From Flaccisagitta enflata (Eukaryota): a stretch of 64,000 bases of DNA. A model generated the notes under the pieces. It did no database searches. It saw only the letters and a program-made list of their open reading frames with translations, and had not been told where the DNA came from. Below, piece after piece: positions 6,363 to 52,856 of the stretch. Every line of letters starts with the position of its first letter. Position 1 is the stretch's first letter. The translations under genes and the position numbers were made by a program. Where the stretch lies: contig OZ231126.1 of NCBI GenBank assembly GCA_965153355.1, forward strand, positions 22,568,001 through 22,632,000. The letters run 5' to 3'.

Positions 6363-7277
6363 TATAAATTACGCCCACGAGTTTCAACTGGCACTGTCTA
6401 TGAGCGTCTATCTGACTGACGACTTGTGGTGAAAGAAAGTTGGCCGATTGGAAAATAGGAAGGCGATCGTCTCGTTTATTCCATAAAAATTTCAACAACT
6501 GAAGAGAGGGGGAAAAATGAAAGGGAAAGTGGGCGTTACTTGTGATCAGCAAACGCAAAAGATAACATGAAATCGAGATAGGACACAATAAAGGACAGAA
6601 ACAGCACATGACAACATGTTCATCTTCTTCAGAGCCCATGCCACCTGATAATACCTGCCCCTGCCCCGGCCCATCCCATTAAATTCATCCATATCATCCC
6701 TATAGCAAGCTGATCGGGCAAGCGATAAAACCATACTAAAATCCGGCGATAAAAATGCAAAAGAGCAAAAGACAAAATAACAGACCGGAAAACAAGATAA
6801 AAAACAACGTTAATAAAAGCAAAGACGCGTCTATAAAACTTACTTTTAGGCCCACTTTCGTTGGTTTCAACCCACAGTCTGTCGAAGTCAAATTAACGTT
6901 AATTGTCCGTTCATAAGTTTATCTGCAATAAAAAGATGAGAGATTATTGAAATTAGTGAATTCCAAGGGCGCATTCAAACGATCACGAAAAATCAATCAA
7001 TCACTTTAAGAAGCAATGCCGTAAATAAATAAAATCAATCAATCCAAAAATTGGACGATACGAAAGACGAGTTACGTATGTTCGCCTACGTAATAAAAAC
7101 AAATGGCACAAAATACAAGGCGCAACCATATGGTTACCCATCTAGCGTTCAATATAAAAAATGGCGAGAAACAAAAGACGCGGGCATTGAATAATCGAGA
7201 AAGAGGAAAAGCCAAAAGCACGCAAAAGAGACAAAAGCACACATACTTAAGAAACGGACAGACATACATTTCTAACA
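6363..7277 (-). repeat. 3' LTR of the BEL/Pao element
   Basis: Direct repeat of 18722-19637 with only a handful of substitutions and small indels. The terminal ~8 bp are missing and replaced by the flanking (TC)n tract. Confidence 0.93.
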
Positions 7278-7292
7278 TTCTGCCCCATTTTT
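7278..7292 (-). other. Polypurine tract (plus-strand primer)
   Basis: AAAAATGGGGCAGAA on the minus strand lies immediately before the TGTTAG start of the 3' LTR. Confidence 0.85.
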
Positions 7293-7426
7293 GGAATTTC
7301 ACGAATTTCAAAAATCCGACATCTAGTTTCCAGTCGGGGAAACCCTACTAAAAAACCGATACTACCTTCCTTAAAAAAAATTTACATAGATACAGCCCCC
7401 GCCCCTCCCCCCCCGTCCACCGCCTC

Positions 7427-10400
7427 TTACATCCCCACCCTAACTATCAACAGATCGACGACTGCACGAATGATGATTCCCGTCCGGAAAGGATCCACCA
7501 CCAGCAAATTTTCAACGATCAACGATGACGCGGATGGAGACGAGGCGGCGACGAGGAGGTTGAGGCGCCCGTTCTGTGAAAGTTAAAGGGAAGGGGGGGG
7601 GAAGGGGAACGGGCCTTGGAGCACTCCAAGCCTGGGATTTGACTTGAGAGTGGAAAATAATAAGTGGGGGCATACTACTAAAACATGTCATACGAAAGTA
7701 TTCGTAATAATGACTAAAAAGACCATGTCTAAAACAAACACAACAAAAATGTACATGTTCCAAAGAACCAAACAAAACAAGACAAAATTAAATAAATTAC
7801 TAACTATATAATAAAAACGAATCTGTTAAATAAAAGAAAAATTAGTAAGCATCATGGAACGACCACATCACCTGCGCCTTCTCCATTACAGAGACGAGCG
7901 GGTCATTCCGGCTCCAACATCTCGTCAACTCGTGGGCGAAAGGCGATGAATGATGTCGTCAACGGCGACCGCATCGAAAGGCGCAGGTGGTGCAGCCGTC
8001 TGAGAGTGAATCTCCTCCCCGAAGGGAAGACAAAGAAAGAGAAAGAACAGGGGCAGATTGATTAGTAAAGTTCTTATCGTACACAGATTCAAATTTACCA
8101 CAAAAACTCAACCTCAACCCTTCCCAAACCATGATACTTACGCGGGCGTTTTTCGCCAGGCCCCGGGGCGGACGTCATTCCCACGCCCCGGGTAGCGCCC
8201 CCGACTTGGCCGGCCTGTCCATCGATGGGATGAGGATGTGATGGTGGAATACGATCCTCAGCGAATGGCGGCGCTCTCCACGCCATGTTGCAAATTGGTA
8301 GTTAAATTGAACAGCAACTGGGCGTGGCACCAATCAGCGTTTAGCTGGCGGTCTGATTTTTCCAAGGCCTGGTTCGATTTTTCTTATTCCCAGGCTTGGG
8401 AGCGTCTTTTTGCGACAGGATCTGCTGACCGACTTTTTCTGCAGGAGAAGACGCAGGAGGTGGAGATGCTGCATCGCAATTCGGCGCCAGTCAAAATTTA
8501 GGACGCACAGCGGACGCAGTTTTGAAGTCGACGGCCATAGCCGCCTTTGCGCGTTCCACCGCTTCCTCTTTCTTCTTAGCCTTCATCGCACAGGCCTGCT
8601 TCTCCTTTTCAAGCTGCTTCTCCAGTTCCACGACTCGCTTATTGCCTTTGACCACCTCATTGTCCGCAGCCATTGCTGCTCGACGAGCATCGTCTCTCTC
8701 CTTTTGGATGTTGCGCGAATCCTCTCGTCTAAGACAACGAGCCTTCAACTCGTTGACGCGGAGGAAGCGACGAAGAAGTCTTTTGGAAGCCTTGATGCTA
8801 AATTCTTCACCACCCCCAATGGAGCATTTGAGGTCAGTAAAGAGGCTTCTCGTAGCAATGACTCGGCGATGTGGTGTCCATGCGCAGGATCAAAGGCTGG
8901 ATCCGACGGGGGAGGCGGGTTCTGCACTTGCTGCAGACCTTGGGCAGACTCGGTTTGCTGACGAGGCGCTACACCAGCTTTAACAGATGCTGAAGCACCG
9001 CCAACTAGTTCGCTTCCTACCGCTGCTTTTGATGGCTGCGAGTGAAAGGAAGACGCTCCCGTCTGCTGACCAGAGACTTGAGGTTTAACAGCGGACGCCG
9101 AAGCACCGCAAGTAGAACCTCCCTTGGTTGCTGCTTTATGCTTCTTCCCAGCTCTCTTGGTCTTCTTCCCCTTTGCTGCCGCTGCCCCAGGCGCCTGATT
9201 CAGCTTCTGGGTTGCTGCCAACGTTGCCGTCGACGAACCGCTTGAAGCTTCTCCTTGGCCTTTGGGCGTTACTGCTGCAGGGGGCGCGCCTGGAGGCGCT
9301 TGAAGGGGGCCTTTGCTTTTGGAATTTGGCCCTTTTTGTAGACTCGGCACGTTGCGCGTTTGTGGAGTCTTTCCCCGACGTGATCTCTTCGACTGTTGTG
9401 AGGGAGTGACGTCACGAGGACCCTGTTGCTGCTGATTTGGGGGATGAACCAATCCAGGCGCGATTGACGACTTCCTGATGCTGTAGAGTGAATTGCCGCT
9501 GATGTAGCTGCGGCTGCGTCGAGCACAAATACCGCTGGTGGAGTTGCGGAAGCGTCGACGGAAGTTGCTGCAGATGAATTTGCAGTTGCATCAGGAGGCT
9601 TCGGAGCCGCATTCTTCCTCTTCGTCGCCTGGACCATGCGACGAACCTCCTTATCATGCTCCCTCCTTCTTTTGTTGCTTTGGATTTTGCGCTCCAGAGT
9701 CTCCGAGCCAAGCTCTGTTTGATTAGCCGATGAGCGCATGAGAGTTTGTTTGTTGCAGCATACCGAAAGTTTTTCAAACTCTTTGAAGAGGAGAGATACT
9801 TCGACGTCCGGACTGATGATACGATACCACCAACGCGCCTGCATCCGTTGGTGTTTCTCTTCCGGCGTCGCAGTGTCCACTTCCGGGTCAATGTCTTTCT
9901 CCACCGCCTCCCCATTCACTAACACCTCCTCCTCTGTCTCCATCCCCTCCTCCTCCACTCTTGCTCCATCATTGACCGATCTCTCTCTCTCTTCGCCCCC
10001 GCTGCGTTGACGTGCAGCTGCAGACGCTTGATCACGAGACGCTGGGCGACCGAAATCAAGGCAGAATTGGCGAGGCGATGGGGGCAAATCCGATGATGAT
10101 GACGCCGCCGCAGAAGTGGTGGATAAGTCCGTCGGCGGCCGATTGATCGAGATCCGCCTCGAACCTCCATCTTTGATGACCACCAATGGAGGAAGCGACG
10201 CAGGATCAACGGCTGGATGGCTGTTGACGATTTACCAACGCATCATCTTGTTGGCGCTTTTTATTCGCCATTTTGCGTCTACGACGGAAGGCGAGGTCGC
10301 CATTGAAGGCTGCCAACGCGACAGCCTCCTCCTCCGCCCGAACGACGTCGTGGATGCAGATCCTTCAGTGAGCCGTCGTTGAAGAGTCGATGAAGATCCA

Positions 10401-10549
10401 AGGATCCGTACGACGTCGACACGTCGGCTTCTGCCTCGAGACGCTGCTGACGGGACATCTTGACTCCGACGAGCGACTTCAAGATGCGAACTGACTTCGT
10501 AGATGGAATGACGTCGTCAGCGGAAGCTTTGAAATGTTCGTATTGAGAA
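7427..10549 (-). CDS. Putative accessory gene of the retrotransposon; frameshifted and probably spliced; function unknown
   Basis: Chain of overlapping GC-rich sense ORFs (10279-10578, 9269-10186, 8745-9452, 8491-8748, 8095-8286). Candidate splice sites: acceptor at 10550, donor at 8141, acceptor at 8000 or 8015, donor at 7871, acceptor at 7574. Confidence 0.6.
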
Positions 10550-10808: not shown

Positions 10809-12452
10809 TTATGAGTCCAATTCCAGCCGCACGAGCTTCGTGCGGTCTTTCGTCACGATCTTTCCATCTTGGCGCCGGATGTGAGCCCTCCGGACATGGG
10901 CTGACGAACCCTCGACGCCCATGACACGTCCTAAACTCCAATTGTGACGAGGCAGCGTTTCGTCCACGACGATGACCATGTCATCCACCGCAAAGTCTTT
11001 CTCGGATCTCGACCATTTGCTTCGCGCGTGAAGAAGCGACAAATATTCGACCCTCCACGATTTCCAAAATGCATCCACACGCGATTGCGCACGCCTCCAT
11101 TGAATCTTCGCAGAGTCGGCGTCAGAGTTGACGCCTTGTTGCACCAGATCTAGAGGGGCGCGACCGGATGTCGATGGATTGAGGATATGATTCGGTGTGA
11201 GGGCCTCAGAGTCATTTGGATCATCGCTGAGCGCTGTCAGAGGACGGCGGTTGAGAATTCCTTCAACTTCGACAACGGCAGTGTTGAAGGCGTCGACGTG
11301 GAGGATGGCGCCAGTCGAGATGGAAGCAAGATGGCGCTTAAAGAGAGCGACGATTCTCTCCCACACCCCTCCATAGTGGGGTGTTCTCGGCGTGATGAAA
11401 TCCCACCGAAGGCCGCGCCGCTGCAATTCTGGAGTTGACGAGCGGTTCCACGCTTCCATTTCCTTCTTGAGGATATTATTGGCGCCTACTAGATTCGTCC
11501 CGCAATCTGAAGTGAAACGGCGGATTCCTGGGCGCCTTGCTGCAAAGCGGATGATTGCATTTACCATCGCATCGGCTGACATGTTGAAGAGCAATTCCAC
11601 ATGGACGGCGCGTGACACGAAACAGGTGAACACTGCGATCCACACCTTGTGATCAGCACGCCCGTTCATCTTCACCAGGAAATGCCCCATGACATCCAAT
11701 CCAGTCTCTGCAAAGACAGGTGCAGGATTGACGCGATTTGATGGAAGATTGGCCATTTGCTGATTTGCGTTCTTTTTAAAGTTCTTCTGGCATCTGAAGC
11801 ATGTGTTGACGACGCTCTTGACAGCCTGAAGACCTTTGTAATCCACACAAATTGGCAATTGGCACAATGTATGCTTTGCACCCGCGTGAAAATCATTGTG
11901 ATGATAATGGCGAATCAATGATTTCACATTCTTGTCTTTTGGCGGCAGGATGAAGGGAAATTTAGCGTCATGTGCGATGTCGGCGTTTTCCAATCGACTG
12001 CCGACGCGAATGATACCGTCGTCGTCGACGAAGGGATTCAATTTCCGCATCTCTTTATTCTTTATGATGAAGTCATGACGGCTTTCTGGTTTAAAGACTT
12101 TTCCCAACTCCAATTGTTCGAAGATGTCTGAATAATGATGCCGCTGCATTGACTTGACGAGCTGTTTGCGCGCCTCCTCCAAGACGTCTTGCGTCACTTC
12201 CGGTTTAGGAAGGAGATCCTTTGCTGCTCGTGTCTTCGCCCTTGGATACGCTCTCCATCTTTTGACTGCGATAAGAACCATGCCGATGATCCGCAACTTG
12301 TGCATCCATTTTCCCCGAGAAGCTGCTGCAAGAAGTATCGCGTCAGCCACTTGTCTCTTTTCACTTTCAGCCACATACAATGCGGCGACTTGTGCAGAAA
12401 TAGGGCACGTCGCGATGTTCGTCTTTGGCCATTGATCTTCGGGAAGACGCAA
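10809..12452 (-). CDS. pol: Pol: integrase (HHCC, DDE core, C-terminal domain)
   Basis: LNPFVDDDGIIRVGSRL, HHNDFHAG...CFRC, GLDVMGHF, SDCGTNLVGA, GGVWERIV, LTPNHIL, WSLGRV. Confidence 0.95.
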   Translation of the reverse strand: MRLPEDQWPKTNIATCPISAQVAALYVAESEKRQVADAILLAAASRGKWMHKLRIIGMVLIAVKRWRAYPRAKTRAAKDLLPKPEVTQDVLEEARKQLVKSMQRHHYSDIFEQLELGKVFKPESRHDFIIKNKEMRKLNPFVDDDGIIRVGSRLENADIAHDAKFPFILPPKDKNVKSLIRHYHHNDFHAGAKHTLCQLPICVDYKGLQAVKSVVNTCFRCQKNFKKNANQQMANLPSNRVNPAPVFAETGLDVMGHFLVKMNGRADHKVWIAVFTCFVSRAVHVELLFNMSADAMVNAIIRFAARRPGIRRFTSDCGTNLVGANNILKKEMEAWNRSSTPELQRRGLRWDFITPRTPHYGGVWERIVALFKRHLASISTGAILHVDAFNTAVVEVEGILNRRPLTALSDDPNDSEALTPNHILNPSTSGRAPLDLVQQGVNSDADSAKIQWRRAQSRVDAFWKSWRVEYLSLLHARSKWSRSEKDFAVDDMVIVVDETLPRHNWSLGRVMGVEGSSAHVRRAHIRRQDGKIVTKDRTKLVRLELDS

Positions 12453-12960
12453 AAATGCAGGACCGTGATGGAATTGACGCCATTTTTCGGCTTCATGGGC
12501 CTGGATGCCTCTGCTGCAGTGGTCCGCCGGGTTGTTTGACGAATCAACCCAGCGCCACTGTTGAGGATCAGACCGCTATGGATCTTGGAGAGACGATTGG
12601 CGAAAAATACAGGCCTCGGTTTCGCCGGATTGTAAATCATCTTCAGTGCAGATTCAGAATCGGACCAAAATCTGACGACAAGATTGTCCAAATCGATGGT
12701 CCTTCCGACGAAGCGTTTAAGCTGCACTGCTTTTTCTGCGGATACAATCTCGACACGTGGAACGCTGTTGTGATGAGAAGCACGTTTGGGATTAAGTGGA
12801 ATGACGTGGGATTTGGAGCGATGAACGAAATGTGAACATCTCCATCTCGATTGACTTGACGTCGATATGCAACTGCTCCATATCCGCCTTTTGGAGCCGC
12901 ATCGCAAAAGATCTCAATTGTTATTTCCGCAATGTCACTATTGTCGACGCCGCCATTCCT
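12453..12960 (-). pseudogene. pol: Pol RNase H segment, frameshifted
   Basis: IFCDAAPKGGYGAVAYRR, SKSHVIP...VPRVEI...FWSDSESAL...FFANRLSKI and NNPADHCSRG occur in the expected order but in three different frames. Confidence 0.85.
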
Positions 12961-14854
12961 CAGCGTTCAATTGGTATTGTTGTAGAAGAGGCCAAGATGA
13001 AGTGTAGCGGAAGAAGGACTCCTCGACGCTCTCTTCCAAGGGCGAATCCCATCCCACTTCCTGTGGACGACAGAGTTGAAGATGTCGTCTGCCGATGTAT
13101 GCGCTTGGGCTCCAAAATCCCAATGGATCATAAAGTTTGGCTTGCATGGAGACCAATTGACGAGGTGTTTTCGCTCTAAGAGTTTTGAATTCCTCGTCGC
13201 AGATGAAGATGAAGACGTCTTCCGCCGGAAGCCATGAGACGCCCAACACCTTCGTCGGCGCATCATCTTGCTTATCTGAGATGGGAATTGGCACGTTCGG
13301 ATCTCCATCCATCAATTGCCGCGCATTACTTTTCCACTTCACAAGATCCATCCCGCCTTCAGCCATCGCCGCCACTGCATCCACCTTCAACTGCAATGCT
13401 TCGTCGACCGAATCCCCACCCCCACTTCCGTCGTCGACGTAGTAGCAGAAGCGAATAAGATCGTAGTCGTTGTAGGGATATTTGGGCCGGATTACTTCAG
13501 CATGCTTTCTGACGGTGAAAGACGTGACGAATGAGCTGGATTGGCTGCCGAAGACATGTGATAAGAACAGATTCAAAATGGCTTCTCGTAAAGTACGGTC
13601 TTTGAACCAAAAGAATCTGAACAGATCAGCGTCGTCAGGATGGACGCGGATCTGGTGGAAGAACGCCTTTATATCACACATAAAGGCGATCTTCCACTGA
13701 CGAAAACGCATGAGGATGTCCATCAAGCTGTTCATCAAGTTTGGACCTCCGACGAGCAAATCATTGAGTGAGATCCCGTCGGTCGCCGCACGCGCATCGT
13801 GACATACGCGCGTTTTGCCGCGCAATTCAACAATATGAAGCGGCAAGTACCAGCGCGGCTTCTCAATGCCGTCGTCGTCGTCGACATTGTCAATCTCAAC
13901 CGCCACTCCCGTCTCGTAAAACTTCTCGATTTCACGGAAGACTCTTTCTTTGAAGGCTGGATCACGCTTGAAGCGAAAACGTTGGTTACCGAGCCGCTTC
14001 ATCGCAGTCGGTCGTGATTTCACTCTTCTCAGAATTTCCATGATTTTTTCGTGATGAAATTTCCATGTGACGGGAGCAAAGTACTTTTTCACAATTGGGC
14101 AAAAATATGTCTTTTCCTCTAACGTTTTGCACGCTCTGACATTTTCAAGGGAATCACCCATCTCCTCTTGCGAGACGATTGATGATGCAAAGTCATGGTA
14201 GAAGATGCGGTCAATGTTGCTGTTGAGGACGCGATTGTCGAGGATGCGATCGATGTTATCGTTGAGGACGCGATCATCCGTCGCGATAGCGTTGATCGAC
14301 GCAATATCTCGTCCTCTCTTGCCCGTTTTTCCACATACAGTCCAACCGAATAGACATCTGAAGCAAGTCAAAGATCCTGAAGGCCCTCGACGGATTTCTT
14401 GAGCGACGGCGGCATCCGCATGCGCCGCTCCGATGATCATCATCACACCGCCTTCAGCTTCTGGAAATTTTATGCCTTCGATGTGAGGTTGGTCGGATAG
14501 GTCGCGGAGAAAAGGAGGAATGTCGCGTTCACTCGTTAACAAATCACCCACCAATGCGTCGTTGACGTCGACGATGTATTCCTCGTCGACAGATTGCATA
14601 GTGAATGATGCGATGAAACGATCCTCAACAACATGACTTCCCACAGTAATCACCGTCATTTGCACTGTTTTTGTTGGAATCAGAAGACTGCGAATGACGC
14701 TGGTACTGATCACGTCGCGATCAGCGCCTGAGTCGATCATAGCGTATATTGTCCTCTGCGCACCCGAAGAATTGTTTATGATAGTCACTGGAACGATCGG
14801 ACGGACAACGTCGTCGAATGAAGAGACGGACCGCGACGTTGCCGTCGCCGCCAG
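12938..14854 (-). CDS. pol: Pol: aspartic protease, reverse transcriptase and start of the Pao RNase H region
   Basis: YAMIDSGADRDVIS (protease). WYLPLH...RVCHDA...LNDLLVGGPNL...CDIKAFFHQI...YYVDDG (RT). KVLGVSW...LYDPLGFWSP. In frame with gag across a TGA. Confidence 0.95.
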   Translation of the reverse strand: MAATATSRSVSSFDDVVRPIVPVTIINNSSGAQRTIYAMIDSGADRDVISTSVIRSLLIPTKTVQMTVITVGSHVVEDRFIASFTMQSVDEEYIVDVNDALVGDLLTSERDIPPFLRDLSDQPHIEGIKFPEAEGGVMMIIGAAHADAAVAQEIRRGPSGSLTCFRCLFGWTVCGKTGKRGRDIASINAIATDDRVLNDNIDRILDNRVLNSNIDRIFYHDFASSIVSQEEMGDSLENVRACKTLEEKTYFCPIVKKYFAPVTWKFHHEKIMEILRRVKSRPTAMKRLGNQRFRFKRDPAFKERVFREIEKFYETGVAVEIDNVDDDDGIEKPRWYLPLHIVELRGKTRVCHDARAATDGISLNDLLVGGPNLMNSLMDILMRFRQWKIAFMCDIKAFFHQIRVHPDDADLFRFFWFKDRTLREAILNLFLSHVFGSQSSSFVTSFTVRKHAEVIRPKYPYNDYDLIRFCYYVDDGSGGGDSVDEALQLKVDAVAAMAEGGMDLVKWKSNARQLMDGDPNVPIPISDKQDDAPTKVLGVSWLPAEDVFIFICDEEFKTLRAKTPRQLVSMQAKLYDPLGFWSPSAYIGRRHLQLCRPQEVGWDSPLEESVEESFFRYTSSWPLLQQYQLNAEEWRRRQ

Positions 14855-17800
14855 TCATGCCGTGGCGTTAGGAGAGATGATTTCCGTTGGATCGGCTGCC
14901 TCCGTCGTCGACGGAGCTGTTGGTGCTGCTGCAGCCGCATCCTCTGACTTTTTGAAGGGAGCCAGCGGTACTTTATTTCCCTGCTTATTTTCTCCTTTCT
15001 TCTCTTCCTTTTCTTCTTTCTTGTAGGTGCGCCCGTGGAGAATCGTTGCGTGCCGCTTCTTGCAGGTTTGGCAAGTCGGTCTGTTCGCGCATCCTTTGGC
15101 GTTGTGTCCTGGCGCGAGGCAGTGGAAGCAAAGACGACGAGACATGATCTTTTGAACTCTCGCGTCCACTTCCAACTCTAATAGCTGATGACACTCTTCT
15201 GTTTGATGCATTCCACTGCAGACGTTGCAGCGGTCCGTCGACTGCGTCTTTTGCTTGCCATTGGTCAAAGCATCTTCATATGATGATGGCGCTTCTTTCT
15301 CTGTAGTTGCGACTGCTGCCACTGATGCTGTTTTGCAGCTTGCGCCTTTGTTGCGCTGAATCACCGCCCATGTCTCGATCATATTGACCAAGTTGTCAAA
15401 TGAAAATAATTGTCCATTTTGGGCCGCTTCATGTTGCTTTTCCCAGAATTTATCTGCAAGATGAGGGACCCTCTTGTTGAGGATCTCCTGCAGCAGCTCG
15501 TCACGATAGCATTGTTGCACTTCTCCACAGGTCCTCGCAATCTTCTTTGCCTTTTGCAACCTTGCAGACAAATTGAAATGCCTTGCATGGTCAGCCGACT
15601 GGATCTTCGCCTCCGCGACGATTTCGTTGAACAGCGCCGCAATGTTGCAGCGCCTTGCCATAAAGACGACGTCCATTTTTGCGAAGGCGTCGTCAATCTC
15701 TCCTCTTGCTGTCGCTTCAGTTGCATCAATCGTCGCAGTTTCAATGATCTCTTTTGCCGGACCAGCAAACCACTTAGGCAATTCCAATAAGATGTCCATT
15801 TGCGTCAAGCCTTCATGCTTCTCAGCATCTTTGAACTTCCTCTTCCACATCATGAAGTCGGTGGATGAAAGCTCCTGCAGAGGCTTCTCAGGTCTTGCTC
15901 TCTCCAACGCTTTGAGGCCGACCTCCCTTGCTCGCATGAGATCATTGTACGTCGCTCTTTCCAAAAACCTGTCCAGAGCCGGATTGTTGGGCATCTGAAC
16001 GTGGACTTCCGGTTGACGGGCTACTTGATGATGCTCCACTTGATGATACGCTGGGGGTTGTTGGGTAAAGGCGTATTGACCCCCGACTTTTACCGGAGAT
16101 CTCTTTTTGGTGGTTTTTACACTCCACCCAACTTCTTCTTGCTGATTCATCTGTTGTTGACGATCATCTTGATGGAATCGGGGAGCATCAAAATCTTGGC
16201 GGACGTACTGTCGCTGTTGTTGTTCTTCTTTACGTTGTTTCTCTTCTGCTCTCGCTGCGGCAAGGTCAAAGTCTCTCTGCTGAATCTGCATCTTCAAACT
16301 ATCCACTTCTTGCTGCAAACGTTGATTCTGCTGGATGACTTCCGCTTGAGGCGTTGCTAGAGGCGCTTGCGCTACTTTTGGCGCCTTCGGCTGCAATCCA
16401 CTCGTTGTCTTCTTGGGAGCGACTTTTCTCCTCTCCTTATCTTGCAGCTGCTGTGCCAACTTCGCGTCAGCGGCCTCTTGCCTCTGCCTCCTGCGCATCG
16501 CCTCCGTTGCTTCACCTCCGCTTCCGGCTGTGTTGAAGACCTTTTCCTCTTGATGGGGAAGACCAGTCTCCCTTCTAGCAGAACCAATCTGCTTCTCGAA
16601 GATCACTTCCGGTGCGGTAGGGAGAATCGTTGCTGCTGGGGTTTGGTGATGCTGATCTTGATGCTGTTGCTGTTGTTGAAGCCGTTGCTGCTGCCACTGT
16701 TGATGTTGAAGCTGCTGTTGCTGGTCAGGACGCTGTTGCTGTTCATTCTGCTGTTGCAGTTGACGCTGGCGCTGTCCTTGCTGCTGCTGCTGCTCCAACT
16801 GTTGCTGCTGCTGCATCGGCTGCTTGACGGATGTTTCCACTGACTGCACATGACGTTGCTGTATGTTCGAATTGAACAATCCAGGATTGAAATTTCTGAA
16901 GATAGATCGACGGTCTTTTGGCGGATGCTGCGGCTGCTGCTGGTCCAGCTCAGACAGTTGTCTAAGCTTCACATCCCGCTGCTCTAAAGCTCCACCAATG
17001 CCGCCGTCGTTCAGGCTATTCCAGTGCTTTCGTTGCATCTCTGCCGCATTGTTGAATACTCCTGCCCTTCTATCTTCATCTCGTTGCTGCTGCTGGCGAA
17101 AGTTACACATTCTGTCGTATAACTCTTTGTCTTCTTGTGATGAGCTTCGCTGTTGGAATCCCAATGGCACCGCGATCGGCGCCTTTGGAGCTGTTGCTGC
17201 ACCACCACCTTCACCTTCAGCCATCATGCGCAGACGTTGATCTGCAAGGCGTTGCTGTCTCTCTTCTTCTGTCTCCTCACTGACGTTCATGCTTTCGACA
17301 GGATGGTTATTTGAAGCTGGAGGATCCACTACCACCGCTGGGATCGCGGCGGAGGGTTGCTGTTGCTGCTGCAGTTGCTGTTGCATATGTTCTCCTGCAT
17401 CGTTTTGCCGCTGTCGTTGTTGTTCATGCGGCTGCATTGCCGTTTGATGTTGTCGCAGCTCTTGTTGTTGTTGCTGCTGCTGCTGTTGCTGCTGTTGATC
17501 GTGTTGTTGCTGTTGTTGAGCCACAGGTTGTGGCGCCGGCTGCAGGATCTGATGTTGTTGTTGATCTTGTTGACAAAATTGTTGGAGTTGCTGCAACTGC
17601 TGCTGCTGCAACAGCTCTTGCTGCTGCCGTTGAGCCGTAGTTTGCTGCTGCTCCTGTGGCGGTTGGAGTTGACGTTGCTGTTGGAGTTGCTGCTGCTGCA
17701 TCTGCAATTGATGCTGCTGCTGTTGCTCCTGTTGCTGTCGCTGCTCCTCCTCCCGTTGTTGCTGCTGCATGTCGTCAATCAGCCGACGGCCTTGTCGCAT

Positions 17801-18659
17801 TTCCTCCTCCAACTCCCTACCCCATCTGTCTCTCTCAGCACTCCTGTTGACGAGCGTCGCCTCGCCCTCTCCTGCAGCGTCAATCCGTTGATGATCCCGC
17901 GGCCTCTTGCAGGCGTCGGCGTCGTCGAGATCCGCAAGCATGTCGTCAGCTTGCTCCATCGGAGGCGCACGCGCAGGGTTCAATTTCCGAGACCAAATCT
18001 GATACCCATTGATTGGCAGCATCTCCTCTTTGGATCGCGGCAGATTTAAAAATTGACGCCAGTTGGAGATTGCGCACCATGTCGCAGGACCGGAGGTGGT
18101 AGATACTCGGATCCGTCGGGGTTTGGCGAAGACGTTAGCATCCTTGGGTGGGAGCGCGGTAGCATTTGTCACGGGCGGCGTGGGTGTCAGTTGGGAGACA
18201 TTCCATGAGAATTCATTAGCGGGTCTTTGCGATTCCCAATGTCTGTGCACTGCGTTCCACGGTGTCGGCGTTGGAAGGAAAACCCTCTGGATAGTTTTCC
18301 ACGATCAAAGCGCATGGAGTCCCATTCGCGCAGTTCGGCGCAAAGTAGGCGCCGCTGAATCGAGAATTCGCCCGGGCATCGAGTGAGCCATTTGCCTTGC
18401 ATACGATGATGGTAAGCCATATCGAGAAGTCGTGCCGACAGCCAGTTCCTGAAGCGGCGTCGTCGAAGTCGTTCGTTCCTTCGGTTCCAGTAGCTTCGGC
18501 GTCGAAAAGGCGCCGGCATCCTTCCATTTCCGCAGTGATGTCTTTCCTCATTGCGCGCAAACGATTCGACCTCGGACACTGATTCAAACCGAAGTGAGAT
18601 ACACGAGATGACGTTGAAGCGGTCGAGCAGTGTATCGTCGTTGCAGCAACGGCTGCCAT
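14855..18659 (-). CDS. gag: BEL/Pao Gag with a very long Gln-rich N-terminal half; frameshift near 18250
   Basis: ORF 14855-18250 has CNVCSGMHQTEEC, CFHCLAPGHNAKGC and CQTCKKRHATILH, the BEL-type triple zinc knuckle. An upstream ATG at 18659 (MAAVAATTIHC...) lies just after the 5' LTR in a different frame. Confidence 0.88.
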
Positions 18660-18713
18660 TGTCCAATTTCGTTTCGGAGGTCGAGAGACGGAAAGAGTGA
18701 TAGTTTTTAAATT

Positions 18714-19635
18714 TGTTGAAATATAAATTAGCCCCACAGTTTTCAACTGGCACTGTCTATGAACGTCTATCTGACTGACGACTTGTGGTGAAAGAAAATT
18801 GGCCGATTGGAAAATAGGAAGGCGATCGTCTCGTTTATTCCATAAAAATTTCAACAACTGAAGAGGGGGAAAAATGAAGAAAGGGAAAGTGGGCGTTAAT
18901 TGTGATCAGCAAACGCAAAAGATAACATGAAATCGAGATAGGACACAATAAAGGACAGAAACAGCACATGACAACATGTTCATCTTCTTCAGAGCCCATG
19001 CCACCTGATAATTCCTGCCCCTGCCCCGGCCCATCCCATTAAATTCATCCATATCATCCCTATAGCAAGCTGATCGGGCAAGCGATAAAACCATACTAAA
19101 ATCCGGCGATAAAAATGCAAAAGAGCAAAAGACAAAATAACAGACCGGAAAACAAGATAAAAAACAACGTTAATAAAAGCAAAAACGCGTCTATAAAACT
19201 TACTTTTAGGCCCACTTTCGTTGGTTTCAACCCACAGTCTGTCGAAGTCAAATTAACGTTAATTGTCCGTTCATAAGTTTATCTGCAATAAAAAGATGAG
19301 AGATTATTGAAATTAGTGAATTCCAAGGGCGCATTCAAACGATCACGAAAAATCAATCAATCACTTTAAGAAGCAATGCCGTAAATAAATAAAATCAATC
19401 AATCCAAAAATTGGACGATACGAAAGACGAGTTACGTATGTTCGCCTACGTAATAAAAACAAATGGCACAAAATACAAGGCGCAACCATATGGTTACCCA
19501 TCTAGCGTTCAATATAAAAAATGGCGAGAAACAAAAGACGCGGGCATTGAATAATCGAGAAAGAGGAAAAGCAAAAAGCACGCAAAAGAGACAAAAGCAC
19601 ACATACTTAAGAAACGGACAGACATACATTTCTAA

Positions 19636-19637
<2 letters not shown>
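18714..19637 (-). repeat. 5' LTR of the BEL/Pao element
   Basis: On the minus strand it begins TGTTAGAAATG (19637) and ends TTTCAACA (18714), giving TGTT...AACA termini. It matches 6363-7277 and has a minus-strand AATAAA at 18834-18839. Confidence 0.93.
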
Positions 19638-35113: not shown

Positions 35114-36130
<1,017 letters not shown>

Positions 36131-39826: not shown

Positions 39827-40168
39827 TTTGGTTCCAGAATAGAAGAATGAAAGAGAAAAAAGAAAAACAAAAGATCTCAGAACTGAACGCTGAAGCCCGC
39901 GCCAAACACAGCAAAGTCAAGACTTCCTCGTCGCCATCTCACGACGAAAACGAGAATCACGACGACGATGACGACGACGACAAAGACTCTTTCGACGACG
40001 CCACGGACGCCCTTTTGGACAGCAACAAAGCAGACCCCAAAAGCAACAACAACAACAACGGCGCTATCGCCCGAGGTCTACCATTACCCGCCTCCAAAAA
40101 CCCACCCACTTCTTTACTCGAACACCAGCTACAACAACAGCAACAACATCAACAACAGCAGCAGCAGC

Positions 40169-40199
<31 letters not shown>

Positions 40200-40416
40200 T
40201 GCCAAGTCAGAGAACTTAGTCAATGAGAATCTCGTCGATCACAAACTGGCGTCATCGGCGTCTCTAATTGGCGGAGGGAATGACGCCGGGATGTCGTCAT
40301 CAGCCAATGAGATGTCGTTGCCGGGCGGCGTCCTCAACAACGGCGTCAATGCCTTGAACCTTCACGAGGTCAATCTCAAATCGGCTTCCGATGCGGCAGT
40401 CGCTTTTACCCAATAG
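39827..40416 (+). CDS. Hox terminal coding exon: end of homeodomain, Ubd-A-like peptide and long C-terminal tail
   Basis: Acceptor ...tctcAG ends at 39826. G+TT TGG TTC CAG AAT restores VWFQNRRMKEKKEKQKISELN. Acidic, poly-N and poly-Q tracts follow, up to TAG at 40416. Confidence 0.95.
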
Positions 40417-44390: not shown

Positions 44391-46425
44391 TTTAGTCGCG
44401 TGCATGCGACTCTATAACCCGCTCTGTCGGTCCGTCGGTCGGTCCGTAACACTTAGCTTTTTTTTGTCTTTTTACGTCATTTTAGGGTATTTTACGTCAT
44501 TTTAAGTCATTTTATGTCATTTAAAGTCATTTTAAGTCATTTTCAGTTAATTTTAGTCACTTAAGTCATTTTGTCATTTTTGTCATTTTATGTCATTATG
44601 AGTCATTTTAAGTCATTCTTAGTCATTCTAAATTATTTTAAGTCATTCTAAGTCATTACAAGTCATTCTAAGTCATTCTCAGTCACTCTAAGTTATTTTT
44701 GGCTTTTACAGTTTTTAGTAACACTTTGCTTTTTTGCGTTGTTTTTGATATATTTGGGTCGTCTGGAGTTATTTTGAGTCATTATTTTGTTGTTTTTGGT
44801 CATTTTTGGTTGCTTTTGTTCATTTCTGGTTGCTTTGCACGCGACTCTATAACCCGCTCTGTCGGTCCGTCGGTTGGTCCGTAACACTTAGCTTTTTTTT
44901 GTCTTTTTATGTCATTTTAGGGTATTTTACGTCATTTTAAGTCATTTTATGTCATTTTAAGTCATTTTAAGTCATTTTCAGTTAATTTTAGTCACTTAAG
45001 TTGTTTTGTCATTTTTGTCATTTTATGTTATTATGAGTCATTTTAAGTCATTCTTAGTCATTCTAAATTATTTTAAGTCATTCTAAGTCATTATAAGTCA
45101 TTACAAGTCATTCTAAGTCATTCTCAGTCACTCTAAGTTATTTTTGGCTTTTATAGTTTTTAGTAACACTTTGCTTTTTTGCGTTGTTTTTGATATATTT
45201 GGGTCGTCTGGAGTTATTTTGAGTCATTATTTTGTTGTTTTTGGTCATTTTTGGTTGCTTTTGGTCATTTCTGGTTGCTTTTAGTCATTTTGGATCATTT
45301 TTGATCATTTACGTCACTTTGCTAATTTAAGTCATTTTTTTCTGGTCATCTAGGTTTTTTGGTATGTTTTGGTCATTTTTGTTTTTCGGTATGTTTTGGT
45401 CATATGTGGCATTTCAAGTCTGCTGGTTTAAGTCTGCTGGTTTAAGTCTGCTGGTTTAAGTCTGCTGGTTTAAGTCCACTGGTTCAAGTCTGCTTGTTTA
45501 AGTCTGCTGGTTTAGGTTGGCTGGTTTAGGTCAGCTGGTTTAGGTCAGTTGGTTTAAGATGCTGATTTAGGTCTGTTGGTTTAGGTCTGCAGGTTAAGTC
45601 TGCTGATTTAAGTCTGCTGGTTTAAATCTGCTGATTTAAGGCTGCTGGTTTAATTCTGCTGGTTTAAGTCGGCTGGTTTAAGTCTGCTGGTTTAAGTCTG
45701 CTGGTTTAAGTCTGCTGGTTCAAGTCTGCTGGTTTAAGTCTGCTGGTTTAGGTCTGCTGGTTTAAGTCTGCTGGTTTAAGTCTGCTGGTTTAGGTCAGCT
45801 GGTTTAAGTCTGCTGGTTTAAGTCTGCTGGTTTAAGTCTGCTGGTGAAAGTCTGCTGGTTTAAGTTTGCTGGTTTAAGTCTGCTGGTTTAAGTCTGCTGG
45901 TTTAAGTCTGCTGGTTTGAGTCTGGTTTAATTCTGATTTAAGTCTGGTTTAAGTCTGGTTTAATTCTGATTTAAGTCTGGTTTAAGTCTGGTTTATGTCT
46001 GGTTTAGGTCTTGTTTAAGTCTGATTTAAGTCGGGTTTATGTATGGTTTAGTCTGGTTTAAGTATGGTTTCAGTCTGGTTTGAGTCTGGTTTAAGTCTGG
46101 CGTGAGTCTGGTTTAAGTCTGGTTTAAGTCTGGTTTAAGTCTGGTTTAAGTCTGGTTTATGTCTGGTTCATGTCTGGTTAAGGACTGGGTTAGGTCTGGT
46201 TTGGGTCTGGTTTAGGTCTGGTTTTGGTCTGGTTTTGGTCTGGTTTTGGTCTGGTTTTGGTCAGGTTTAGGTCTGGTTTAATTCTGGTTTGAGTCTGGTT
46301 TGAGTCTGGTTTGGGTCTGGTTTGGGTCTGGTTTAAGTCTGATTTTCGATAAAAAGATACAATAAGGAGTCAGGTCAGTTCAGTTATTTTTGTCCTGCAC
46401 GCGACTTATAGGTGTTGGCCTTGTT
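44391..46425 (+). mobile_element. Expanded HINE-like copy carrying an internal duplication and three tandem arrays
   Basis: Family head and GCACGCGACTTATAGGTGTTGGCCTTGTT tail. ~435-bp duplicated block. Arrays of AAGTCATTTT (10 bp), TGCTGGTTTAAGTC (14 bp) and TCTGGTTTAAG (11 bp). Confidence 0.8.
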
Positions 46426-51000: not shown

Positions 51001-51682
51001 CTGTCTCGACATTTTCCGATGATTTATAAATTTATTTGAAAATAAGAGGCTTAGAATTTCATTCTTCATCGTTTATATTTTTTCTTTTTTAAGTAGACAA
51101 AATCTTCATAACTTTTACTGCTTCTTATTCAATTACAAGAATTCATGTCTCCATAAGATCGAAGGAGCGAACGAGCGAAAAACAAAGCTGGTTAGAATAG
51201 AACATTAGCATTTAAACAAGGAGAGGGAAAAAAAAGTATAGTATTGCTTCAGGGTGATCTTCTATAATCGCCTGCTACACGACTTTACATCCCACTTTGT
51301 CGGGCTGCCCGTCCGTCAATCGGTCTGTCGGTCTGTCGGTCACATTTTACTTCTTTTATGTTTTTAGATTTTTGTCCTCACTGTTCCTGCCCAAATGCTC
51401 AAATACGGCCCCTCAAATACGACCCCTGCCCAGCCGCACGCAATTGGGGTAGCCGTGTATTCGGCCTTGTTTTACTTTCTTGTCACAAAAGTGTTTATGA
51501 ATAGACAATACACTTCATCTAGTCTGTAATACTTGGCCATTTTGATCTAACCATCCCAGCAAACAAAGAGTGGGATCTAAAGATTCATAACGACTTCAGA
51601 AACATGAAAATTTTCCTGATATTACAATCATTATTTGGAATAGCAAACTTTGTCTAACATTTTTAATGCAAGAAGTAGAAAA

Positions 51683-52856
51683 AACAAGGCCAACACCTTT
51701 AAGTCGCGTGCAGGACGAAAATAACTGAACTGACCTGACTCCTTATTGTATCTTTTTATCAAAAATCAGATTCAAACAAGACCCAAACCAGACCCAAACC
51801 AGACTCAAACCAGACTCAAACCAGACTCAAACCAGACTCAAACCAGACTTAAACCAGACTCAAACCAGACTCAAACCAGACTCAAACCAGACTCAAACCA
51901 GACTCAAACCAGACTCAATGCAGACTCAAACCAGATTTAAACCAGATTTAAACAAGTAAAATTAAACCAGACCTATAAGAGACCGAAAGACTAAACCAGA
52001 CCTAAACAGACATAAACCAGACATCAAACAGACATAAACCAGGCATAAGCAGTCATGAACAGGAGCATAAACCAGACATATGCCAGACTCCAAACCGAGC
52101 TTAGCAAGAGACTTAAAGCGGAGCTTTGCCAGACTTAAGCCAGGCTTAAACCAGACTTAAAACCAGACTTAAAACCATGACTAAACCAGACTTAAACCAG
52201 ACTTAACCAGACTTTAGCCAAGACTTAAGCCCAGGAAGCTTAGGCATTTAATTACTAAGGATGACTTACCAGACCCAAACCCGACTCAAACCCGACTCAA
52301 ACCAGACTCAAACCAGACTCAAACCAGACTCAATCCAGGCTCAAACCGACTCCAAACAGACTCAAACCAGACTCAAACCCAGACTCAGAAGCCAGACTTA
52401 AACCAGACATAAACCAGACATAAACCAGACATAAAACAGACATCAACCAGACATAAACCAGACATATACCCGACTTAAACCAGACTTGAACCAGACTTAA
52501 GCCAGACTTAAGCCAGACTTAAGCCAGATTTAAAACCAGACTTTAAGCCAGACTTAAACCAGACTTAAACCAGACTTTATCCAGACTTTAACAAGACTTA
52601 AACCAGACTTAAAATGATTTAAAATTAATAAGAATGACTTAAAATGAATTGAGATGACTTGAAATAACTTAAAATGGTGTAAAATGACAAAAACTTCAAG
52701 AGTTAAAAAATGACTTAGAATGACTTAGAATGACATAGAATGACTTATAATGACTTTGAATGACTTAAAATGACCTAAAATGACTTGAAAAGACATAAAA
52801 CAACAAAAACTTCAAAAGTCAAAAAATGACTTAGAATGACTTAGAATGACTTAGAC
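51683..52856 (-). mobile_element. HINE-like copy with 11-bp and 10-bp arrays; inverted relative of 44391-46425
   Basis: Starts with the reverse complement of the 46340-46425 tail, then (AAACCAGACTY)n and (AATGACTTAR)n arrays. Confidence 0.75.

Follow-up and report, generated by a model that had tools for sequence, protein, structure and literature searches.

Every retrotransposon with long terminal repeats (LTRs) must divide its RNA between translation and packaging, and the known solutions are an intron in the coding sequence or two start sites. Ogre and EVADE (PMC12786077, PMC6317226) and BARE (PMC3735527) keep sense introns since only part of their RNA is spliced, and BARE has separate translated and packaged RNA pools (PMC3735527). 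CERV of the C. elegans Ty3/gypsy element Cer1 is built from spliced coding exons and has a demonstrated role in export (PMC10309623), Penelope-like elements retain introns of untranslated regions (UTRs) after retrotransposition (bioRxiv 10.1101/2021.04.23.441226), and the mRNA of Arc has two conserved 3'-UTR introns that trigger decay and raise translation (PMC5934489). Tf1/sushi elements are described as having a primer site by the 5' LTR that is complementary to a short LTR segment, and Tf2 as having a downstream start that yields RNA which cannot be copied (PMC4600332, PMC5341516, PMC6317226). The third open reading frames (ORFs) reported for BEL/Pao elements, those of Roo and mosquito BEL elements, are fusion glycoproteins (PMC13524379). 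Here we analyzed a BEL/Pao LTR retrotransposon on the minus strand (19637-6363) of a 64,000-nt stretch of Flaccisagitta enflata DNA (GCA_965153355.1, contig OZ231126.1, forward-strand positions 22,568,001-22,632,000), referred to as the window, and in particular a series of intron-like units in its tail. A preliminary description of this DNA had regarded the retention of sense introns as exceptional; it is less so than was implied, being known from Ogre, EVADE, BARE, Cer1 and Penelope-like elements.

We propose, with a probability of roughly 0.55, that the tail intervals are real spliceosomal 3'-UTR introns, used in part of the transcripts, which would mark the translated pool, the unspliced RNA being the form that is copied. 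The preliminary description placed two introns inside the element. All of the motifs it named are present at the minus-strand bases given, but the introns lie in the tail 3' of ORF3 rather than in gag-pol and are the first two of four units. Coordinates below refer to the window, and all features of the element are on its minus strand.

A non-coding exon part with conserved GC-rich blocks runs from the ORF3 stop to donor 1 (8142-8340; 199 nt here, in family A, and 201 and 210 nt in sister families B and C). Unit 1 (8000-8141, 142 nt) begins with CGC/GTAAGT at 8141, continues with TACTAAT at 8067, a pyrimidine tract at about 8050-8021 and a hairpin (8012-8030, folded for each variant), and closes with CTCTCAG ending at 8000; its branch point is about 60 nt from the AG, with the hairpin between. 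The acceptor had been given as 8015 or 8000. The latter is the likely one, because the GAG at 8015 sits hidden in the 3' arm of the hairpin and is altered in 8 of 87 sequences; 8015 was accordingly rejected. Exon 2 (7872-7999, 128 nt, GC 0.59) ends at the donor CAG/GTGATG at 7871. For this donor the distal acceptor motif, TTTCACAG ending at 7574, is real, but a nearer TACTAAT (7847) and a CAG ending at 7823 stand behind the same donor, and 7574 is therefore the distal one of two acceptors. Unit 2a (7823-7871), which the preliminary description missed, thus spans 49 nt, and unit 2b (7574-7871) spans 298 nt. After non-coding exon 3 (7431-7573) comes unit 3 (6923-7430, 508 nt), which covers the polypurine tract (7278-7292) and reaches 355 nt into the 3' LTR (6363-7277, 915 nt). 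Unit 4 (6499-6843, 345 nt) lies inside the LTR; transcription may start at its acceptor, whether or not this site also serves in splicing. The signals follow the order of a U2-type intron, with GT donor, branch motif, pyrimidine tract and YAG. The intervals of units 1 and 2b have GC contents of 0.41 and 0.36 with 2 and 5 CpG, and the flanking exons have 15-28 CpG.

The exons have stops in most frames, and the longest ATG frame in the computed spliced tail is 61 codons; one frame of exon 3 is stop-free. Family B lacks the ATG of 8286, and its exon 2 contains frame-changing gaps. Because the exons are non-coding, the units are 3'-UTR introns and do not separate coding exons such as those of Rev- or Tat-like genes. 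The parallel with complex retroviruses drawn in the preliminary description therefore fits only loosely: ORF3 is a single upstream frame, and no regulatory protein arises from spliced coding exons. A peptide from the small exons was likewise rejected on the length of the longest frame and the loss of the ATG in B. The GC-rich blocks before donor 1 (8221-8142) are nearly identical between A and B, and a 12-nt word from them also occurs in C. The block can form a stem, which is no stabler than those of shuffled sequences (z 0.17, -0.09 and -0.53), and folding lends no support to a structured export element before donor 1. A search of Rfam returned one chance match only, with an E value of 0.3.

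Conservation is the real evidence for these signals, the motifs alone being weak. We aligned 94 other family A copies (105 fetched loci, minus 10 duplicates and the window copy). One copy, L090, and seven others of low identity were excluded from the variability count of 87 sequences and included in the core counts of 80 or 94. Cores were kept at donor 1 in 78/80, branch 1 in 80/80 and acceptor 8000 in 79/80 copies; corresponding values were 92/94 for donor 2, 89/94 for the next core in order, 90/94 for acceptor 7823 and 88/94 for acceptor 7574. Tracts vary in length and C/T content within the family, with the branch motif and CAG fixed, and at 7574 any of T, A and G can occupy position -4. 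As about 12% of sites vary between A subfamilies, this conservation is only modest evidence.

Families B and C were found in the same genome (794 Mb, 9 contigs) with homologue baits; P0022 as bait revealed no fourth family, one fetched locus (L032) missed its target and another (L157) ended before the tail. Family B is 75-81% identical in pol amino acids and 65% in tail nucleotides. It keeps all four dinucleotides named in the preliminary description, compared with 51/132 other GT and 28/71 other AG (about 0.39 each; the AG count includes two of the acceptors added here), an outcome of roughly p 0.02 if sites are independent. The four donors and five acceptors are all present in B, each in 6 to 8 of 8 copies, with the last acceptor one column off. 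A 32-nt block before donor 1 is identical between A and B, and the unit 1 tract has 50% identity and remains 90-95% pyrimidine, so that turnover is among pyrimidines. Unit 2a measures 46 nt in B and 69 nt in C.

Family C is more distant, with 54-57% amino acid identity in pol and a tail that blastn does not align. The shared 12-nt block is followed after 63 nt by CCCGC/GTAAGT, whose distance of 210 nt from the ORF3 stop compares with 199 nt in A and 201 nt in B; branch motif, tract, hairpin and CAG complete this unit 1 of 169 nt. The 69-nt unit comes next, with a second acceptor 48 nt on, then one of 618 nt that spans the polypurine tract and, within the LTR, one of 101 nt. Any given site is present in between 7 and 11 of the 11 copies. 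Apart from the first, the sites were chosen by eye, and units 2-4 of C are therefore weaker evidence than unit 1. The hairpin of unit 1 lies 9-13 nt before the acceptor in all three families and has a loop of the UUCG type in A, GCGA in B and a C-rich loop in C; that stems and loops differ in sequence points to a function as RNA. The GT/AG conservation which the preliminary description had looked to in sister families was thus found, together with conserved branch motifs, in both B and C, where the signals are kept while their surroundings diverge.

Genomic copies precisely lacking the intervals, an outcome raised in the preliminary description, were searched for and none was found. The exact 19 bases preceding donor 1 occur in 285 copies, and the next base is G in every one (0/285 intron-less). 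At donor 2, eight copies have a base other than G, all of which retain intron sequence. Eight joints were present among the 19,349 contigs of a DNA run, none of them at a predicted site. A deletion subfamily of 40 copies was recognized by its exact junction pattern (window equivalent 10445 to 7993; of 15 loci fetched, 14 had the join). In these copies exon 2 directly follows the first codons of ORF3; they lack ORF3 and unit 1, keep unit 2, share integrase deletions and are non-autonomous. We rejected the junction as that of a spliced copy, since there is no donor at the 5' break, the acceptor is removed and pol deletions accompany it; we read it as a deletion derivative. L090, an 84% copy with the same junction sequence inside a full-length element, is patchy and could be a chimera produced in assembly.

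The 5' end of the element has a further feature that adjoins the last predicted acceptor. No primer site of the TGG type follows the 5' LTR (18722-19637, 916 nt, TG...TA, inserted in a (GA)n tract) in A, B or C. The primer-binding site (18713-18722), which is not of the tRNA type, pairs with a candidate self-primer (18848-18857) that begins at the first base after the LTR acceptor A4 and is the perfect 10-nt complement of 18722-18713. Perfect pairing extends over 10 nt in A, where the last LTR base takes part, over 11 in B and over 12 in C, and shuffled LTRs reached such a match in 19, 6 and 0 of 2000 cases, respectively. Twenty five-prime ends were examined; nine were without one part, and in all 11 with both parts the pairing starts right after the last acceptor. 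Besides the window these comprise ten loci, and the sequence covaries across the three families. The primer site thus matches a segment of the LTR and appears not to be of the kind that pairs with the end of a tRNA, which makes the element a candidate for Tf1-like self-priming in BEL/Pao. The junction at the last acceptor could serve as an acceptor, as a start site or as both. Downstream of the self-primer stands an initiator-like TCAGT, whose distance from the LTR end is 57 nt in A, 56 nt in B and 60 nt in C; RNA started there would lack the primer. Most family A and B copies have LTRs that end in TA, not CA (at 6363 and 18722 in the window, and among 30 fetched loci), and those of family C end in CA.

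Under the proposed reading, the element would make two RNA pools, one translated and one copied. The translated pool, consisting of ORF3 mRNA and perhaps of gag-pol mRNA, would have a spliced tail; exon junction complexes would thereby be deposited 200 nt or further past the ORF3 stop and would tune export, translation and decay. With junctions so placed, the mRNA would become open to decay and its translation could rise, as described for Arc (PMC5934489). Fully spliced RNA would be without the polypurine tract and most of the U3 (unique 3') region and could not be copied. The unspliced pool, with the self-primer at its 5' end, would be the one that is reverse-transcribed, and every new copy would keep the introns because this pool is copied. 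Spliced or downstream-start RNA would then be a dead end for reverse transcription, and retention could be explained without a special packaging filter. We infer splicing, its partial use, the two pools, the effects of junction complexes and any role of ORF3 in export; the regulated splicing, selective packaging and export proposed in the preliminary description would stand on the same footing. A more specific version would make the four-intron tail a translation/replication switch of an animal BEL/Pao clade, in which splicing licenses and time-limits the ORF3 mRNA and removes the polypurine tract, the last acceptor marks the 5' edge of a Tf1-like self-primer and host splicing picks the self-priming RNA. 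Taken as a whole, we consider that version unlikely.

Donor-like words in the coding body also bear on the question. GTRAG on the sense strand occurs once in the window against 15 expected, 3 times in B against 12 and once in each of two C copies against 10; antisense counts (11, 7, 10 and 9 in the window, B and the two C copies) are near expectation. The depletion suggests that the spliceosome sees the RNA of the element and that perfect tail donors are retained on purpose.

Several results weigh against the proposed reading. The preliminary description had pointed to junction reads across the predicted introns, and the contigs of three shallow RNA runs (three studies, depth about 10-50) had no joint at any predicted site, a comparison of little power. 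RNA contigs read through unspliced over 7618-8385 and 8040-8337, and the third run covers bases inside unit 1. The libraries are of mixed plankton and may hold DNA, contigs drop rare forms, and runs X17 and X18 had no cover at 7378-7713, which counts neither for nor against splicing. Splicing is thus not supported by the RNA contigs and is opposed by them only weakly. The deletion subfamily spread without unit 1, which is therefore not needed in cis. As unit 1 is dispensable yet never lost precisely, RNA spliced there is either not copied or not made. Donor 3 was kept in only 76/94 A copies and lost in 9/87 A sequences. Exons are no better conserved than introns (0.58-0.71 vs 0.55-0.81). Given how T-rich the tail is, its motif counts lie close to chance: in block shuffles, 2 strong acceptors were observed against 1.3 expected (p 0.37), 2 GTAAGT against 0.3 (p 0.03) and 3 GTRAG against 2.3. 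The donor depletion is smaller against synonymous-codon shuffles (7 vs 14.3, P 0.014) and absent from ORF3 of C (5 vs 3.8), and many other words containing TA are depleted too, so that TA avoidance is a confounder. Finally, A, B and C were all drawn from a single assembly, in which errors occur in patches among the repeat copies.

The negative regulator of splicing in Rous sarcoma virus is a model for decoy sites, at which U1 and U2 bind and splicing hardly ever completes. If the tail signals were decoys of this kind, RNA might be held in the nucleus, 3' end formation in the LTR steered or decay shielded. Conserved signals accompanied by unspliced RNA contigs alone agree with such sites, as do the distant branch point of unit 1 with its intervening hairpin and the 32-nt identity before donor 1. 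However, complete sets of donor, branch motif, tract and AG in the right order and spacing recur four times and in three families, and a decoy does not need five intact acceptors; we regard decoys as improbable. A lower probability still attaches to a spliced tail that is a product in its own right, whether a multi-exon non-coding RNA or a short peptide, or to acceptors that take a trans-spliced leader, with the last one setting the 5' end of the genomic RNA beside the self-primer. The exact start of the self-primer at acceptor 4 in all 11 ends, with a sequence that differs in A, B and C, and the stop-free frame of exon 3 fit this idea, but no reading frame is conserved between A and B, Rfam offers no match and no loose end at 6499 is among those listed. 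The spot also reads as an initiator-like TCAGT in A and may simply be a start site.

It is about as doubtful, or marginally more so, that the signals are never used and are T-rich tail spacers or relics of a captured fragment of a gene, conserved for, e.g., packaging or promoter structure. The near-chance motif counts, the lack of any junction and the equal conservation of introns and exons all agree with this, and 13 of 136 GT sites keep 9/9 bases, only 3 of them being predicted donors. It is opposed by family C, which shows the same layout without alignable sequence, by the turnover of tracts around a fixed branch motif and CAG, and by the keeping of perfect donors in the tail while they are depleted in the coding strand. 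We therefore continue to favor partly used 3'-UTR introns.

The rest of the element is that of a BEL/Pao retrotransposon, with direct LTRs, a polypurine tract and 5-bp target duplications visible in B and C copies. Hundreds of copies are present in the genome (824 first-look candidates, 40 of them scored at 95-100%), and the two LTRs of the window copy differ by 16 substitutions in 915 columns. The gag region (14855-18304) is Q-rich and has three zinc knuckles, which we take to be of the BEL/Pao type; it had no Pfam hit. The pol region (10809-14854), split into three frames in the window copy, has protease, reverse transcriptase, RNase H region and integrase in the BEL/Pao order, with the Pao A17 region and DUF5641, domains that its homologues share. 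At one other locus (L043:3161-4069) an extra LTR abuts the integrase region, which makes this a tandem or a recombined copy.

ORF3 (8341-10458; ATG at 10458, TAA at 8341) encodes about 700 residues between pol and the 3' LTR. It is interrupted at several places in the window copy, yet many natural copies have it open: no stop occurs in 57 of the 63 best matches, a set that favors intact copies. Conservation by codon position against family B is 0.57, 0.62 and 0.44, lowest at the third position, and identity to the two sister-family ORF3s is 44% and 24%. The product is mostly disordered, with basic stretches and a C-terminal helical and coiled-coil part, and in the predicted model 462 of 703 residues have a predicted local distance difference test score (pLDDT) below 50, the remainder being helical. 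Members of the family have about 690-780 residues and two short conserved helical blocks. Matches comprised 6 proteins at 85-98% and 7 clusters for the N-terminal domain. No Pfam family, fold match or distant relative was found in the libraries searched, nor anything at 0.9 in the atlas; a metagenome scan with ORF3 for other hosts gave no relative, leaving the family without relatives outside the clade, and a scan with the motifs gave one chance hit, in a bacterial gene. With its disordered and helical make-up and no Pfam or fold match, ORF3 does not resemble a membrane fusion glycoprotein. A CERV-like role in export is possible by analogy, on the basis of its position and basic stretches. Ahead of the ORF3 ATG (10535-10455), A and B share 21 bases that include an AG, and also a TCAGT of the initiator-like kind at a distance of 37 nt from the ATG; this region is a possible internal promoter or acceptor, and RNA started at the TCAGT would likewise lack the self-primer.

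Elsewhere in the window, two homeobox exons (35448-35600 and 39827-40413), presumably of a central-class, Antp-like Hox gene, lie on the plus strand, opposite to the element and 16-28 kb away. The host intron between them has the form GTGAG...CTCTCAG. The first Hox exon was not found, and the 10 kb upstream revealed no host exon with a hexapeptide motif. Minisatellite arrays with 14- and 11-nt units occupy 45330-46330 and 51680-52550, and the 11-nt arrays form an inverted pair.

Retained sense introns are already known, and it is the tail arrangement that we did not find in the literature searched, which lacked most subscription journals and Repbase; that literature also yielded no 3'-UTR intron chain and no BEL/Pao self-priming. 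The arrangement is a real, conserved feature, and its central step, splicing, is what we infer from it. Roo and the mosquito BEL elements resemble this element in their LTRs, gag, pol with Pao A17 and DUF5641, and third ORF in the env position. In contrast, ORF3 is mostly disordered with nothing glycoprotein-like, an intron chain follows it and there is no tRNA-type primer site. The intron of Ogre, EVADE and BARE lies in or between coding regions and sets the Gag:Pol balance, whereas here four predicted units lie in the 3' tail and U3. Cer1 is likewise an animal LTR element with a lineage-restricted non-Env ORF in the env position and unspliced RNA that must leave the nucleus; the present element differs in being BEL/Pao, with ORF3 in one exon, introns downstream of it and no homology found. 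Penelope-like elements belong to another class, without integrase and with the intron in the 5' UTR. Self-priming of the Tf1/sushi kind is described for Ty3/gypsy and some Ty1/copia elements, whereas here the element is BEL/Pao and the primer segment begins at an acceptor-like site; the signature thus widens a mechanism described for those two groups. Arc, a host gene of retrotransposon gag ancestry, has ceased to transpose, whereas the introns here ride in a mobile family of hundreds of copies, and if the proposed reading is true, they parallel the 3'-UTR introns of Arc in an element that still moves. A chain of introns through the 3' UTR and U3, kept across families whose pol is little over half identical, would then be a further solution to the division of RNA between translation and packaging.
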